A stretch of DNA of 64,000 bases from Escherichia coli (GTDB lineage: Bacteria; Pseudomonadota; Gammaproteobacteria; Enterobacterales; Enterobacteriaceae): NCBI RefSeq assembly GCF_051903065.1, contig NZ_CP178438.1. The stretch is one strand, 5' to 3'. The notes beneath the pieces were generated by a model. It did not search any database, was not told the origin of the DNA, and was given only the letters and a program-made list of their open reading frames with translations. The translations under genes were made by a program, and so were the position numbers. How positions within the stretch are numbered: the stretch's first letter is position 1; the number at the start of each line of letters is the position of its first letter. Shown in pieces: positions 12,856-41,517 of this stretch.

Positions 12856-12938
12856 GTTGGTACGAAATGTTGCACAATCAGCAAGTTAGCGTCACTGTAG
12901 TAAATAAAAGAACCTGCCTCACCAGCAGGTTTTTTTAT
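12856..12938 (+). ncRNA. orzO: Antitoxin small RNA (OrzO-like), about 80 nt
   Basis: Bounded by the consensus promoter and an intrinsic terminator; nt 12856-12873 (GTTGGTACGAAATGTTGC) can pair over 18 nt (one G-U) with the toxin 5' UTR encoded at 12689-12706. Confidence 0.7.
12912..12937 (+). terminator. Intrinsic terminator of the antitoxin sRNA
   Basis: Stem ACCTGC / GCAGGT, loop CTCACCA, followed by TTTTTTT. Confidence 0.75.
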
Positions 12939-13463: not shown

Positions 13464-13546
13464 GTTGGAACACGATGTTGCACAGGCTGTGGTGTTAGGC
13501 CTGAAAATAGTAAATAAAAGAACCTGCCTCACCAGCAGGTTTTTTT
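13464..13546 (+). ncRNA. orzP: Antitoxin small RNA (OrzP-like), about 80 nt
   Basis: Promoter plus terminator; 13464-13483 (GTTGGAACACGATGTTGCAC) is complementary to the UTR segment encoded at 13298-13317 with one mismatch. Confidence 0.7.
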
Positions 13547-33979: not shown

Positions 33980-34152
33980 GATGAGCATTCAGATAGTGGT
34001 TCACGCGCACGGGTTGCGCACCGCCGGAGTAAGGATTTACTGAGGCTAGCGACGCCATCATAACGAGCAAAAAGTGCGATCGTCAAAGGAGAATCGTGTG
34101 GAAATGCTGCATTGCTGACATTTATGCCAGCAATGCAACGTCAAAGAACTTT

Positions 34153-36420: not shown

Positions 36421-37857
36421 TCAGCGTTTGTAACCCCCGCCCAACGCACCAGTGAGTTGAATGGAGGCATCCAGCCACTGCCCTTGCAATAACAGGCCAT
36501 TGGCCCGCTCACGCAGCGCGGGGATTCTGGCTTCGCTGACGCGGGAACCAGCAATGATGCCCGCGTTAAAGCGCGCCTGCGCAAGACCTACCACACGCAA
36601 GGCATCGCGCTCAATTTGCGCCTGATGCTGGTTTTTCTCCGCCAGTGTCTGAACCTGACTGGCTGCCCGCGCCACGTCATTCACCGCTTCAACCACCGCT
36701 TTGTTGTAGCTGGCGATAGACAAGTTGCTTTCGGCTTTTGCGATATCGAGATTGGCGTTAAGACGACCACTATCGAAAATGGGTAGCGTCAGGCCTGCCG
36801 TAACGCCCATTTGCTGCGCGGAATGACGGAACAGATCGCTTAAGTGCAACGCATCCTGTTGCAGGAAGGCCATCAGGTTGATGTCAGGATAAAATGCCGC
36901 TTTTGCCGCATCAATGGTGCTTAGCGATGACTCAACGTACCAGTGCGCCGCCTGCAAATCTGCCCGCCGGGCCAGTAAGGAGTACCCCAGTTCATCAGGA
37001 AGCTGGCTTGCCACTTTCGGCAACGCGACCGGTTTAAGCTTCAATGACTTTGTCTGGTGATTTGTAAGTGCGCTTAACCGTGCCTCAATAATTTTCATTT
37101 TCCCCGCGACATCGTTGAGCTGCTGCCGGGTTTTGCTGGCATTAATATCGGTTTCCACACCTTCAACTGAAGAAGTAATCCCGTTCTGATATAGCTGGCG
37201 ATCGGTCGCGATAATGGTGTTCTGCTCTTTTTCTATTTGCTGCAAGACCGTGTTTAACGCCGCCTGGGTTTGCCACTCCCAGTACAGGCGGGCTACGCTG
37301 CCAGCCAGCAATTGGCGGGTTTGCTCGCGTTCCGCCGCCCGTGCTTTAACCGTACCCAGGCGGGCAGTAACCTCCGCCCGATTCTTTCCCCAGATATCGA
37401 GATGCCAGCCCGCCGTTAAGCCAAAAGTTCCGTTGGTGTACCACGGACCGGTCGTACCTGCGGCCGGATCGTTCAGAGCAAACGGCCCCATTAAGCCTTC
37501 TGCCGACATTTTTTGCCGCTCCATATCCGCAGAAAAGTCGATCTGCGGACCATCCTGAGTAGCAACTGCCTTCGCCTGGGCTTCAGCTAGCTGAATGCGC
37601 TGTTCAGCCACCTGCATATCCGGTGCGTTCTGTAGTGCATTGTTAATTAATGAAGTGAGTTGATTATCGTGATACTCCAGCCACCATTGGCTGTCTGGCC
37701 AACCATTTTTCAGCGCCGTGGGTAATGCGGTGTCAACTTGTGCAGCGGGCGTTTGCTGGCTTAACGCCTGGCGGGTTTCATGCATAGGCGCACACCCGGC
37801 CAGCATCAGTAACAGCGGAAAACAGGCGATGGCTGGATAAAAGGAATCACGATTCAT
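36421..37857 (-). CDS. mdtQ: Outer-membrane efflux lipoprotein, NodT/OprM-like, apparently intact here
   Basis: Lipobox LLMLAGC after start MNRDSFYP; continuous 478-codon frame. Confidence 0.75.
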   Translation of the reverse strand: MNRDSFYPAIACFPLLLMLAGCAPMHETRQALSQQTPAAQVDTALPTALKNGWPDSQWWLEYHDNQLTSLINNALQNAPDMQVAEQRIQLAEAQAKAVATQDGPQIDFSADMERQKMSAEGLMGPFALNDPAAGTTGPWYTNGTFGLTAGWHLDIWGKNRAEVTARLGTVKARAAEREQTRQLLAGSVARLYWEWQTQAALNTVLQQIEKEQNTIIATDRQLYQNGITSSVEGVETDINASKTRQQLNDVAGKMKIIEARLSALTNHQTKSLKLKPVALPKVASQLPDELGYSLLARRADLQAAHWYVESSLSTIDAAKAAFYPDINLMAFLQQDALHLSDLFRHSAQQMGVTAGLTLPIFDSGRLNANLDIAKAESNLSIASYNKAVVEAVNDVARAASQVQTLAEKNQHQAQIERDALRVVGLAQARFNAGIIAGSRVSEARIPALRERANGLLLQGQWLDASIQLTGALGGGYKR

Positions 37858-38080
37858 GGGGGAATAATCAGGTAAGAAAAGGTGCGCGGAGATTACCGTG
37901 TGTTGCGATATATTTTTTAGTTTCGCGTGGCAATACATCAGTAGCAATAAAACGACATATCCAGAAAAATATACACTAAGTGAATGATATTCTCCGATTT
38001 ATCTTAATCGTTTATGGATAACGGCAAAGGGCTTCGTTTTTTCCTATACTTATTCAGCACTCACAAATAAAGGAACGCCA

Positions 38081-38164
38081 ATGAAAATTATACTCTGGGC
38101 TGTATTGATTATTTTCCTGATTGGGCTACTGGTGGTGACTGGCGTATTTAAGATGATATTTTAA
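38081..38164 (+). CDS. yohP: Small membrane protein (27 aa, MKIILWAVLIIFLIGLLVVTGVFKMIF)
   Basis: Hand translation; below the ORF-track cut-off; GGA-containing ribosome-binding region upstream. Confidence 0.6.
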   Translation: MKIILWAVLIIFLIGLLVVTGVFKMIF

Positions 38165-38229
38165 AAATCAGATATGGCATATAAGTTGTCAGGTCAGGAA
38201 CTAGATATTTTGTGTACTTGATTTGCAAA

Positions 38230-38510
38230 CAGCTCCGGTGTTGGTGGCGTCAAAATCGCTGAAGCGTTCCCCGAAGGCCGGGGCAGCCCACATGGATGTG
38301 GGCTGAGGGCGCGTCTTACAAGGACGTTACCTCGCGCCCGACCCGGTAGCCGAAGGGGATAAGCTGAAGGTACCGCGCAGCGGCGATTTTGTTCGCCAGA
38401 GCCCGGGGGTGCAGGGGGAGGAGGCGATTGTCCTCCCCCTGCGCGCTCCTTGCGCCAGTGGCAATATGTGGCTTAGCTCATGAAAGGAGCGCAACAAGAT
38501 GATGAAGCTG
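38230..38510. other. GC-rich, hairpin-rich intergenic element of unknown identity
   Basis: Perfect inverted repeats CAGCCCACAT/ATGTGGGCTG (about 38296-38317) and CAGGGGGAGGA/TCCTCCCCCTG (about 38411-38440); no convincing ORF. Confidence 0.4.
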
Positions 38511-38551
38511 AATAAGCGATTCATTGTCTCTGATAAACTGCGATTCCACTA

Positions 38552-39502
38552 TTATCGCAGCTTATCGATATCAATTGCCTGAATAGCCCTTGCAATATCA
38601 TGGGAATTATTCAACACCCGAACATGCTGAAATAATTCCGTTGCTTCATCGTATTCTTTACGCAAATAACTCAACCACTGTTTAATCCGCGCTACGTGAT
38701 ATAACCCGGTATCGCCCTGCTTTTCCAGACGGGTATATTTTTGCAGCAAAGCAACCACCTCCGGCCACGGCATTCGCGGTTCGTTATATTTTACTACCCG
38801 GCTCAGGTTGGGAATATTGAGCGCCCCGCGACCAATCATCACTGCGTCGCAGCCGCTGATCGCCATGCATTGTTGCGCACTCTGCCAGTCCCAGATTTCA
38901 CCGTTGGCAATCACCGGAATATTCAGCTGCTGGCGAATCTCGCCAATCGCCTGCCAGTCAATATGCTCCGCGCGGTAACCCTGCTCTTTTGTCCGCCCAT
39001 GCACCACCAGCTCCGTAGCGCCAGCCTGTTGAACCGCATCGGCGATTTCAAATTTCTTCTCACCGCTGTCCCAGCCCAGACGCACTTTCACGCTGACGGG
39101 CAAATGCGCCGGTACAGCTTCACGCATCGCTTTTGCACCCTGGTAGATGAGTTCAGGATCTTTGAGTAACGTCGCCCCACCACCGCTACCGTTGACCGTT
39201 TTCGACGGGCAGCCGCAATTGAGATCCACGCCCCAGGAACCTAATTCCACCGCACGGGCGGCGTTCTCTGCCAGCCATTGTGGGAACTGACCTAACAACT
39301 GAACGCGCACCAGCGTACCGGATGGTGTCCGGCTGGCGTTTTGTAACTCAGGGCAAATGCGATGAAAGACTTTTACCGGCAGCAGTTGATCCACCACGCG
39401 GACAAACTCGGTGATGCACAGATCGTAGTCGTTAACTTCGGTCAGCAATTCACGCACCAGAGAGTCAAGCACTCCCTCCATCGGTGCCAGTAACACACGC
39501 AT
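38552..39502 (-). CDS. dusC: tRNA-dihydrouridine synthase C
   Basis: Tracked ORF; start chosen at [11 protein letters not shown] (Dus family N-terminus). Confidence 0.85.
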
Positions 39503-39661
39503 ATCATCACCCGCAAAAAAATGAGGCGCTATGTTAGCGCCTCCTGTGTTTGCAGACAAACTGACTTACTGATTAATTCGGGCAAGATTTTTACCCTCAC
39601 CCTAACCCTCTCCCGAAGGGGCGAGGGGACCGCCCGTGCGCCTGATTGGGTGAAGAAGTGC

Positions 39662-40855
39662 TCAGCGTGGTTGCAAACAGTTATCTTCTTTCCAGCCGTA
39701 CAACCACTCCATGCCGCGATAAAATTCTGCCTGCGATTTCCCTTTCCACAGCAGATTACGTACCTGGCGTTCTACCCCTGCGGCGTGGTAAACCCGCCCC
39801 ATTTCACGGGTCGACCAGACGATGCGCGCGGTGCGCGGAATTCGTACCGACTCATACAGCGCAAAGGCCTGCGCCGCATCACCCTCACACTGCGCCAGCG
39901 CCTTACCCAGCGTTACTGCATCTTCCAGCGCCATACAGGCTCCCTGCGCCATATATTGCGCCACCGGATGGGCCGAATCGCCCACAAGCGTTATGCGCTT
40001 CGTTCCCCACTTCGCCACCGGTTCACGGTCAGCGGTTGACCAGCGTCGCCATGAAGTCGGTTTATCCAACATCTGGCGCGGACGGGGGTGAATCCCTTCA
40101 AAGTAAGAGAGCACTTCCTCTTTACTACCATCCTTCACGCCCCACTCTTCCTGCTGGCGGCTGTGGAATGTTACCACCAGGTTATACTGCTTGCCGCCGC
40201 GCAAAGGGTAATGCACCAAGTGACAATGCGGCCCCGCCCACAGTACCGGTGCGTTAATGCGCAAATCTTCCGGCATATCGGCACGATCGATAACCGCACG
40301 GTAGACAACATGTCCGGTGACACGCGGCGCATCGCCCAATAAGCTCTGGCGCACCACTGACTTCACGCCGTCACAGCCAATCAGAATATCGCCGGTCCAG
40401 CTATTGCCGCGATCGTCAAACACGGTGACATCGTCTTCCGTCTCGCGAATATCCACGACGTTGGTGGAGGTGTGATATTCCACGTCCGGATGCGTCAGTA
40501 CCGCTTCCCACACCGAGGCGTGAATATCAACCCGGTGGATCACCGCGTAAGGGCCGCCGAAATGGTCACGAAAGGCCTGCCCGGTTTCAATGCACACCAC
40601 TTCTTCGGCGTTCACCGCATCCATCATGGTAATGTGATCGGTAAACACCGCGCGCTGGCGGGCAACTTCGCCGACGCCGAGGCTGTCCAGCGCCGAAAAC
40701 GCATTTGGCCCCAACTGGATGCCCGCGCCAATCTCACCGATCTCATGCGCCTTTTCCAGCAGCACCACTTTGATCCCCAGGCGGGCCAGTGACAGCGCAG
40801 TTGCCGCACCGCCGATCCCGCCTCCCACAATTACTGCGCGTGTCACTTTCGTCAT
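39662..40855 (-). CDS. mhbM: FAD-dependent aromatic monooxygenase, probable 3-hydroxybenzoate 6-hydroxylase
   Basis: FAD-binding GxGxxG motif VIVGGGIGGAATALSL; last gene of a gentisate-pathway cluster. Confidence 0.7.
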   Translation of the reverse strand: MTKVTRAVIVGGGIGGAATALSLARLGIKVVLLEKAHEIGEIGAGIQLGPNAFSALDSLGVGEVARQRAVFTDHITMMDAVNAEEVVCIETGQAFRDHFGGPYAVIHRVDIHASVWEAVLTHPDVEYHTSTNVVDIRETEDDVTVFDDRGNSWTGDILIGCDGVKSVVRQSLLGDAPRVTGHVVYRAVIDRADMPEDLRINAPVLWAGPHCHLVHYPLRGGKQYNLVVTFHSRQQEEWGVKDGSKEEVLSYFEGIHPRPRQMLDKPTSWRRWSTADREPVAKWGTKRITLVGDSAHPVAQYMAQGACMALEDAVTLGKALAQCEGDAAQAFALYESVRIPRTARIVWSTREMGRVYHAAGVERQVRNLLWKGKSQAEFYRGMEWLYGWKEDNCLQPR

Positions 40856-40869
40856 TATAGTTCTCCTGG

Positions 40870-41517
40870 TCAGGCTGAAATTTTATCTTGTTGATTTTCT
40901 GGCGCTGCGGCAATGAACGCTGGCAGCTGTGTGCAGGCGTCGTACACCGCTTTGCAGCGTGGATACCCGCTCAAATCGCAGTTCATGCGTAGCGCGTTCG
41001 CCCACTGCGGGACAAGGCAGCAATCTGCCAGCGTCGGCGTCTCGCCCACACAAAATTGCCCCGACTGGTTCTGGCGCAACAGTTGTTCCACCGCGCTTAA
41101 CCCTTGCTGGATCCAGTGCGCATACCAACGTTTTTTTTCTTCTTCACTGACGTTCAGTTCTTCGGTCAGGTAGCGCAGCACGCGCAAGTTATTCAATGGA
41201 TGAATATCACAAGCAATGGCATAGACAATTTCCAGCACCTTGTTGCGGGCCGGCTCTTCCTGCGGCACCAGCGGAACTTGCGGGTAGTGCCTCTCCAGCC
41301 AGTCAATAATCGCCAGCGATTGTCCGAGTGATTCGCCCTCGTCAGTCAGCAGCGTCGGCACCAGCCCGACCGGATTCATCCGCCGATAGGCCAGTTCATT
41401 TTGCTGACCAATACGGATATTCACCCCTTCGGTCTGGTAATTAATGCCTTTCAGCGCCAGCGCAATGCGTACCCGGTACGACGCTGAACTATTAAAAAAA
41501 CTGTACAGCTTCATCAT
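40870..41517 (-). CDS. mhbI: Maleylpyruvate isomerase (zeta-class glutathione S-transferase fold)
   Basis: GST-like N-terminus MKLYSFFNSSASYRVRIALALKG; cluster context. Confidence 0.65.
   Translation of the reverse strand: MMKLYSFFNSSASYRVRIALALKGINYQTEGVNIRIGQQNELAYRRMNPVGLVPTLLTDEGESLGQSLAIIDWLERHYPQVPLVPQEEPARNKVLEIVYAIACDIHPLNNLRVLRYLTEELNVSEEEKKRWYAHWIQQGLSAVEQLLRQNQSGQFCVGETPTLADCCLVPQWANALRMNCDLSGYPRCKAVYDACTQLPAFIAAAPENQQDKISA

Follow-up and report, generated by a model that had tools for sequence, protein, structure and literature searches.

A TRIP1 repeat copy between yohP and dusC of Escherichia coli: a conserved single-strand fold with two GGA hairpins as a candidate CsrA-binding module

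TRIP1 repeats of Escherichia coli were first described by Rudd 1999 (Res Microbiol 150:653) and surveyed again by Li et al. 2024 (Genes 15:236, PMC10888264). In K-12 (NC_000913.3), the survey places TRIP1a at 915016-915281 with the neighbours aqpZ and ybjE (lysO), TRIP1b, which carries a 125-bp internal deletion, at 1080855-1081000 with the neighbours putP and ycdN (efeU), and TRIP1c at 2229122-2229394, 43 bp from the stop codon of its neighbour yohI (dusC); further loci are TRIP1d (alx/sstT) and TRIP1e (copA/ybaP). The neighbours are mostly transporter genes, RNAfold predicts a stable 'double-Y' structure, the TRIP1a and TRIP1c loci occur in both orientations (2952 vs 2789 genomes for TRIP1c), and 156 rearrangements between copies were found, including a 1.3-Mb inversion; the role of the repeat is called unclear (Li 2024, PMC10888264). 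Here, we analysed a window of 64,000 nucleotides from E. coli (contig NZ_CP178438.1 of assembly GCF_051903065.1), in which a GC-rich, hairpin-dense segment between yohP and dusC is almost certainly a TRIP1 copy. Its single-strand fold is under selection according to our comparisons, and two of its hairpins may form a binding module for CsrA.

Two further systems resemble this segment. The consensus of CsrA ligands obtained by SELEX, the systematic evolution of ligands through exponential enrichment, is RUACARGGAUGU; its GGA sits in a loop of six bases that AC/GU closes, and a single CsrA dimer bridges two sites that are 10-63 nt apart (review PMC7652899). The TwoAYGGAY motif (RF01731) consists of two AYGGAY loops and a closing stem P1 that is "often very large" (Weinberg et al. 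2010). In the alignment of the same authors, it is multi-copy in Psychromonas, with the loops ACAUGGAUGU and ACAGGGACGU, and Gardner and Eldai suggested that this RNA binds CsrA (PMC4333381). Rfam clan CL00106 holds both TwoAYGGAY and CsrB.

Identity and conserved fold of the segment

The segment spans positions 38213-38506 of the window (+ strand) and includes all stems listed in an original prediction that had been made from the letters of the window. The yohP gene (38081-38164, +) lies upstream on the same strand, with about 48 nt between its stop codon and the start of the element, and dusC (38552-39559, -) is convergent with it, which is the fixed TRIP1c locus (yohP/mdtQ-dusC) in the orientation opposite to that of K-12. 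The window copy is 91.1% identical over 304 nt to the K-12 lysO-aqpZ copy (TRIP1a) and 89% identical over 272 nt, on the opposite strand, to the K-12 yohP-dusC copy (TRIP1c); both of these are full copies, and the third one of K-12, between efeU and putP, is internally deleted. A nhmmer profile of the family matches positions 38215-38504. Li et al. 2024 count as members those sequences that resemble TRIP1a, b or c of K-12 along 80% or more of their length, and the window copy shows this similarity. The G+C content of 0.64 in the core, compared with 0.52 for the whole window, fits that of GC-rich TRIP1 repeats (62-65%).

The original prediction had described an 'uncatalogued' element and an 'insert'. 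Both terms have to be dropped: the family is already known, an outcome that the prediction itself had named as speaking against it, and K-12 has a 372-bp yohP-dusC interval with the same element inverted. Its other view of the segment, as a repetitive extragenic element distinct from repetitive extragenic palindromic (REP) sequences and bacterial interspersed mosaic elements (BIMEs), held. By megablast and blastn, 5425 of 5426 complete E. coli genomes carry the segment, at a median of three and a maximum of ten places, and the naRNA4/REP matches of Rfam fall at the other sites named in the prediction. The 'RSA' repeat of older surveys, at first a candidate identity, was superseded by TRIP1. 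No TRIP1 feature is annotated in the RefSeq records examined, MG1655 included, and in the literature searched we found no mention of TRIP1 repeats beyond Li 2024 and no paper at all that prints the sequence.

The + strand of the segment folds with a minimum free energy of -145.5 kcal/mol (z = -5.7) and the - strand with -126.7 kcal/mol (z = -4.7), and none of 200 shuffles was as good in either case. In an alignment of 34 copies from nine genera (A1), the consensus structure comprises 67 pairs, 33 of which show double-sided compensatory changes, and standard pairs make up 97.8% of the cells. These values were not reached in any of 500 column shuffles, and sliding the 3' partners by 1-3 columns lowered pairing to 39-44% and the number of double-change pairs to 4-9. 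A covariance model of the 158-nt core (R1) scores 188 bits on the core in the window and recovers two much more diverged subtypes at full length with 43-136 bits; in the wider, model-fitted set of all three subtypes, 94.1% of the cells pair and double changes occur in 34 of 48 pairs. As judged from these sequence comparisons, selection on a single-strand fold of TRIP1 is shown. Because G·U cells exceed A·C cells among the wobble cells (38 vs 13), the + strand of the window is supported as the selected one, and the conserved loops are likewise asymmetric between the strands.

The element, read on the + strand, begins with a 5' leader (38213-38244) that is partly conserved among the aligned copies at different loci and has no convincing promoter. 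The core domain (38245-38398), supported by the consensus structure, R1 and the TwoAYGGAY match, is enclosed by the closing stem P1 (38245-38258 with 38384-38398), whose 13 pairs plus stacked inner stems covary. Inside it are the inner stems 38259-65/38363-69, 38268-72/38355-59 and 38277-82/38342-50 and an invariant mini-hairpin, CCGC-GCA-GCGG (38373-38383). Hairpin 1 (38284-38305) has a 9-bp stem and the loop sequence ACAUGGAUGU (38290-38299, GGA at 38294-38296), with compensatory changes in five of eight pairs and 99.6% of the cells paired. Hairpin 2 (38307-38339) consists of an outer stem GGGCGCG/CGCGCCC, an inner AC/GU pair and the loop ACAAGGACGU (38318-38327, GGA at 38322-38324), and its helices 7 and 8 covary. 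Two hairpins follow on the 3' side. Hairpin 3 (38411-38442) is a perfect GC-rich stem of 12 bp with an 8-nt loop, in which (helices 10 and 11) four pairs are changed on both sides and one pair shows nine G-U cells. Hairpin 4 (38443-38492), GCGCUCCU...AGGAGCGC around a variable 34-nt loop and then a conserved AAC, has compensatory changes in five of eight pairs, for example CGUUCGC/GCGAACG in Atlantibacter and Citrobacter.

The stems predicted at the outset were found where they had been placed. The 10-bp inverted repeat CAGCCCACAT/ATGTGGGCTG is perfect (38284-38293/38296-38305), the repeat reported as 11 bp, GCAGGGGGAGGA/TCCTCCCCCTGC, is in fact a perfect one of 12 bp (38411-38422/38431-38442), and the further stem CCCCGAAGGCCGGGG is present at 38271-38285; regarded as local in the prediction, it is divided between two longer-range stems in the consensus structure. 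Additional stems are GCGCTCCTT/AAGGAGCGC (38443-51/38484-92) and a long-range one (38251-66/38376-91). The segment is thus stem-dense as proposed, with folding far beyond that of shuffles, and what its stems reflect is not simple terminators but a single-strand structure that has been conserved. The suggestion of a structured RNA stands at the level of selection on the fold, and the Rfam comparison proposed for it identified no family reaching its gathering score in the segment; TwoAYGGAY alone appeared, below threshold. The statement that there is no plausible open reading frame (ORF) needs a correction, since a 65-aa ATG ORF exists on the - strand. A coding element was nevertheless rejected, as the longest open frame shifts strand and frame among copies and the alignment contains 1-nt indels. 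The Shine-Dalgarno-like AAGGAG with an ATG at the 3' end was discarded as a ribosome site because this motif, one strand of the covarying hairpin 4, is replaced in other genera by GCGAACG with a matching partner.

Two GGA loops and the weighing of explanations

Hairpins 1 and 2 lie 28 nt apart within the long closing stem of the window copy, and their loops match the CsrA SELEX consensus almost letter for letter. The pattern ACANGGAYGT matches only twice in the whole 64-kb window, at these two hairpins. Among the 34 aligned copies, CA.GGAUG of hairpin 1 is invariant or nearly so, and CA.GGA.G of hairpin 2 is invariant in all of them. The two-site pattern with a spacing of 27-29 nt occurs in 32 of these copies; of the other two, one has an N in the second site and one has lost the first hairpin by deletion. 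Loop 1 contains AUGGAU, or AGGGAU in some copies, and loop 2 fits ARGGAY, as AAGGAC or AGGGAU; the form ACAGGGAUGU of the second loop is that of K-12 and of most other copies. In a copy from Atlantibacter hermannii (locus L078, 5067-5411), an insertion of about 75 nt adds a third hairpin, GGCCC-AUGGAU-GGGCC. Csr/Rsm RNAs are thought to grow by the gain of such hairpins. TwoAYGGAY is the best Rfam match of the window copy, over the full length of the model (38250-38389, 28.4 bits, E = 0.05), and the top family on the Citrobacter, Atlantibacter, Mangrovibacter and MGYG copies, which represent three subtypes (33.7-37.8 bits); the scan of the whole window at E <=0.5 did not report it. The large P1 that closes two hairpins, a defining trait of TwoAYGGAY, is present in TRIP1.

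Taken together, these features lead us to propose that TRIP1 most likely acts as RNA. Transcription of yohP would run on into the window copy, which would form the 3' part of the message, given that no terminator is predicted between the two. Its core would then offer the ACAUGGAUGU and ACAAGGACGU loops at a distance of 28 nt, in a geometry and sequence suited to one CsrA dimer, and TRIP1 could serve as a two-site CsrA-binding module of the TwoAYGGAY or Csr-Rsm kind, either as a small decoy or as a CsrA tether on the host transcript. The assignment as a candidate CsrA module, deduced from sequence and structure, is tentative. The complete chain, from the TRIP1 identity through a selected + strand RNA fold and a yohP co-transcript to a putative CsrA step, appears to us possible, though short of probable.

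Several observations weigh against this proposal. With 28-38 bits, every TwoAYGGAY score falls short of the gathering score of 43. Stems in SELEX ligands are mostly <=4 bp (PMC7652899), but those of the TRIP1 hairpins are long, and two conserved loop GGA sites (three in the one A. hermannii copy) contrast with 13-22 in CsrB/CsrC. Binding of CsrA explains neither ACCGCGCAGCGGCGAUUUUG, which is the most invariant stretch, nor the two 3' hairpins. In the peak table of K-12 CsrA crosslinking and immunoprecipitation sequencing (CLIP-seq; Potts 2017, PMC5694010), no peak contains CAUGGAUGUGGG, and dusC and ybjE are scored 'No' for CsrA; low expression in the exponential phase or multi-mapping filters could be behind the missing signal, and we do not count this as support. 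Transcription signals are scarce as well. In 17 copies, a sigma-70 scan revealed no hexamer pair at a conserved position and the 5' flanks contain no UvrY/GacA box (TGTAAG-N6-CTTACA, <=3 mismatches), no intrinsic terminator was predicted for TRIP1, and no U-tract follows any of its hairpins. Finally, the orientation relative to the neighbours varies, K-12 TRIP1a and TRIP1b being antisense to the adjacent gene.

Other searches for signals and related loci gave the following results. The promoter scan of the window found none on the + strand; some E. coli copies have a weak -10-like box (GATATT/GACAAT) 32-36 nt upstream of P1. The promoter lists of genomic SELEX name only the lysO, sstT and dusC promoters. 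The covariance model of TRIP1 has no match at the csrB locus. The K-12 yohP-dusC copy follows dusC on the sense strand just as the window copy follows yohP, with the element starting 33-48 nt after the sense-strand stop codon in both, and in most of the contexts examined across genera the element points with its 3' end towards that of a convergent gene.

The last two observations are also what would be expected of a transcribed 3'-end module, in which stable stems block exonucleases, terminate transcription weakly or insulate convergent genes in a REP/BIME-like manner and without a specific protein partner. The extreme folding energy and the fact that no other terminator is predicted in the interval agree with such a role. 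A barrier, however, needs neither invariant loops nor a conserved junction nor 270 nt, and the missing U-tract and the antisense position of TRIP1a and TRIP1b relative to the upstream gene in K-12 speak against it, so that we regard this explanation as improbable. We judge similarly the possibility that TRIP1 works only as DNA, that is, as a neutral or selfish palindromic repeat forming cruciforms or hairpins of single-stranded DNA, mainly a substrate of homologous recombination, with GGA loops that are incidental. The rearrangements between copies (Li 2024, PMC10888264), a copy number between 1 and 10 per genome, the two orientations at fixed loci and the lack of a promoter or terminator in our scans would all suit it, and DNA hairpins are likewise preserved by compensatory changes. 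Cruciforms are strand-symmetric, yet the wobble pairs favour one strand by 38 to 13, and the asymmetric purine-rich loops are invariant across genera. In addition, the fold is a multi-branched junction and no simple palindrome, synteny between genera indicates old and retained copies, and there are no terminal inverted repeats, target duplication, clean empty site, transposase or other linked gene.

A further alternative is a functional structured RNA with a partner other than CsrA. This partner could be another protein or an RNA, bound for example through the invariant ACCGCGCAGCGGCGAUUUUG and the junction, or the element could have a catalytic or architectural role. It would account for the facts that the strictest invariant stretch is not a GGA loop and that the 3' hairpins and the junction covary too, and it is compatible with the absent CsrA signal in CLIP-seq (PMC5694010); the function of TwoAYGGAY is itself unproven. 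On the other hand, no Rfam family except TwoAYGGAY comes near, and the loops fit the CsrA consensus almost letter for letter (PMC7652899). We consider this alternative unlikely, too.

If the proposed CsrA module is real, standard annotation has missed a conserved CsrA-binding RNA that is present in essentially every E. coli, and a function would be gained for the TwoAYGGAY motif class as well. The comparative evidence yields a concrete and cheap hypothesis in the best-studied bacterium, although TRIP1 as a sequence feature is ordinary, since the family has had its name for 25 years and was the subject of another survey in 2024.

Copies in Enterobacteriaceae, orientation alleles and other features

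The search across genera combined a scan with an invariant 18-mer, using one genome per species, with subsequent profile and covariance models. The family was found in Escherichia spp., Klebsiella, Raoultella, Enterobacter, Kluyvera, Citrobacter, Atlantibacter, Mangrovibacter and an MGYG Enterobacteriaceae genome, with weaker matches in Entomohabitans; matches beyond Enterobacteriaceae were chance hits of the 18-mer. One K. pneumoniae chromosome carries it at 13 places. The copies between sbcC and mak and between artJ and rlmC are syntenic between Citrobacter and Atlantibacter and therefore predate the two genera. TRIP1 is thereby shown to be an old, vertically kept element of Enterobacteriaceae. 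At a K. pneumoniae locus (L009, 2989-3701), two TRIP1-like copies stand in tandem at a distance of 437 bp, and a REP-like palindrome, GCCGGGTGGCGG...CCCGGC, precedes each of them.

Divergent pairs (<- ->) of two diverged subtypes occur in Atlantibacter, Mangrovibacter, Kluyvera and the MGYG genome. Only 40-170 bp separate the 5' ends of the partners, which points to a bidirectional control region that both share. Such pairs are located at L059 6559-7196, L076 1816-2451, L077 4595-5234, L074 1442-2106, L099 3-571, L042 55-1321 and L054 4796-5403. Of the second subtype, only one partial match was obtained among the 5426 E. coli genomes. At the E. coli loci and at loci of other genera (L074, L075, L042, L077, L078, L009), the genes next to TRIP1 very often encode inner-membrane transporters or channels (YohP, LysO, AqpZ, Alx, SstT, EfeU, PutP, TsgA, ClcA, a UlaA-like protein, NarK, a MscS-like protein and an amino-acid permease). 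The trend noted for E. coli (Li 2024, PMC10888264) thus seems to extend to other genera.

The orientation seen in the window occurs in 1998 of the 5426 complete E. coli genomes (~37%), including O157:H7 and many extraintestinal strains, and the opposite one at yohP-dusC in K-12, ATCC 8739 and O104:H4. We compared the two alleles using window positions 38165-38551 and NC_000913.3 2229066-2229437 (L008 3067-3438). Identity is about 89% inside TRIP1 vs 98-99.6% in the flanking genes, divergence of the spacers is strong, and the boundary between the alleles reaches the last dusC codons (...IDIDKLR* in the window, ...IDIEKL* in K-12). Since identity inside the element is far below that of the flanking genes, the dimorphism is, by this comparison of alleles, old or imported and not a recent flip. 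At lysO-aqpZ, as at yohP-dusC, the opposite-orientation alleles differ in both spacers, and in general the whole spacer is replaced in differing alleles, with no element added. Alleles of alx-sstT without TRIP1d carry unrelated sequence including a boxC-like repeat; in a K-12-like alx-sstT spacer (L110, about 700-1050), the sequence CCCTCTCCC...GGGAGAGGG...GGGGTGAGGG contains this boxC-like repeat instead of TRIP1d.

Several origins were examined and rejected. No match was present in 50,697 phage records, and the plasmid matches, both the examined and the very large ones, were either pieces of chromosome that had been captured or chromosomes carrying a plasmid label, and all are typed as non-mobilizable. 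An all-against-all comparison of flanking ORFs in search of a linked transposase, reverse transcriptase or integrase yielded nothing beyond syntenic neighbours and frames that lie within the element. Transposition in the manner of MITEs, or miniature inverted-repeat transposable elements, does not apply, given that there are no terminal inverted repeats, target duplication or precise empty site. A simple site-specific inversion is incompatible with orientation alleles that are only 89% identical, have different spacers and lack flanking inverted repeats, and an ancestral divergent pair that lost either partner fails as the source of the dimorphism in E. coli, which lacks the second subtype. 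No mechanism was found for the whole-spacer dimorphism at yohP-dusC, lysO-aqpZ and alx-sstT, and that fixed loci show two orientations, with spacers that are not homologous, is a separate puzzle of genome evolution.

Some other features of the window are worth recording. OrzO/OrzP, the antitoxin RNAs in the type I toxin-antitoxin pair zor-orz (Rfam RF02083), match at 12863-12936 and 13471-13546 (+) with 88.8 and 99.9 bits, and the Peptidase-S11 RNA motif (Rfam RF03039) at 33984-34064 (-) with 72.8 bits compared to a gathering score of 34.8. The mdtQ gene (36421-37947, -), an annotated pseudogene in K-12 MG1655, is intact with an ORF of 508 aa. Directly beyond dusC (39662-41517, -), two ORFs encode a 397-aa protein similar to flavin adenine dinucleotide (FAD) monooxygenases and a 215-aa protein similar to glutathione S-transferase (GST)/maleylpyruvate isomerase; this pair is probably an accessory insertion for aromatic catabolism. 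In K-12 and strain 2013C-3264, yohJ occupies that position.

Comparison with known systems

With the TRIP1 repeats a-e of E. coli, the window copy shares the family, the locus, the GC richness, the length (264-273 bp), the branched 'double-Y' fold and the two orientations at the locus, and it shows no difference from the published family. Absent from the published descriptions are the range beyond E. coli, the covariation, the strand, the two GGA hairpins, the resemblance to TwoAYGGAY and the divergent subtype pairs. REP/BIME and naRNA4 elements are likewise GC-rich extragenic palindromic repeats, often located between convergent genes, and substrates of recombination, but their sequence is unrelated and their units measure 35 bp compared to ~290 bp in TRIP1, which is present in 1-10 copies and not in hundreds. 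ERIC/IRU and other MITEs resemble TRIP1 as non-coding intergenic repeats that occur in either orientation and with presence/absence polymorphism; they differ in their terminal inverted repeats, the duplication of TA or other targets and the precise empty site, none of which TRIP1 has.

The likeness to CsrB/CsrC and RsmX-Y-Z consists in GGA motifs in hairpin loops, CsrB-like flanks (CAGGAUG type) and a spacing compatible with bridging by a CsrA dimer. Unlike CsrB/CsrC, TRIP1 has no UvrY/GacA box or terminator and no CLIP-seq signal. From TwoAYGGAY it is distinguished by its second loop, which is ARGGAY and not AYGGAY, by its GC richness, by additional stems at the junction that separate P1 from the hairpins and by two more conserved 3' hairpins. 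That TRIP1 represents an enterobacterial branch of the TwoAYGGAY/Csr-Rsm RNAs, namely a conserved multi-copy putative CsrA module which is carried on the starvation-induced yohP message in strains of the window type and occurs elsewhere in divergent subtype pairs, is a broader view that we hold to be rather doubtful. Among the systems compared here, the traits that TRIP1 has in common with TwoAYGGAY are a large P1 around two adjacent hairpins with the loops ACAUGGAUGU and ACAGGGAYGU and a non-coding, multi-copy occurrence in a gamma-proteobacterium.

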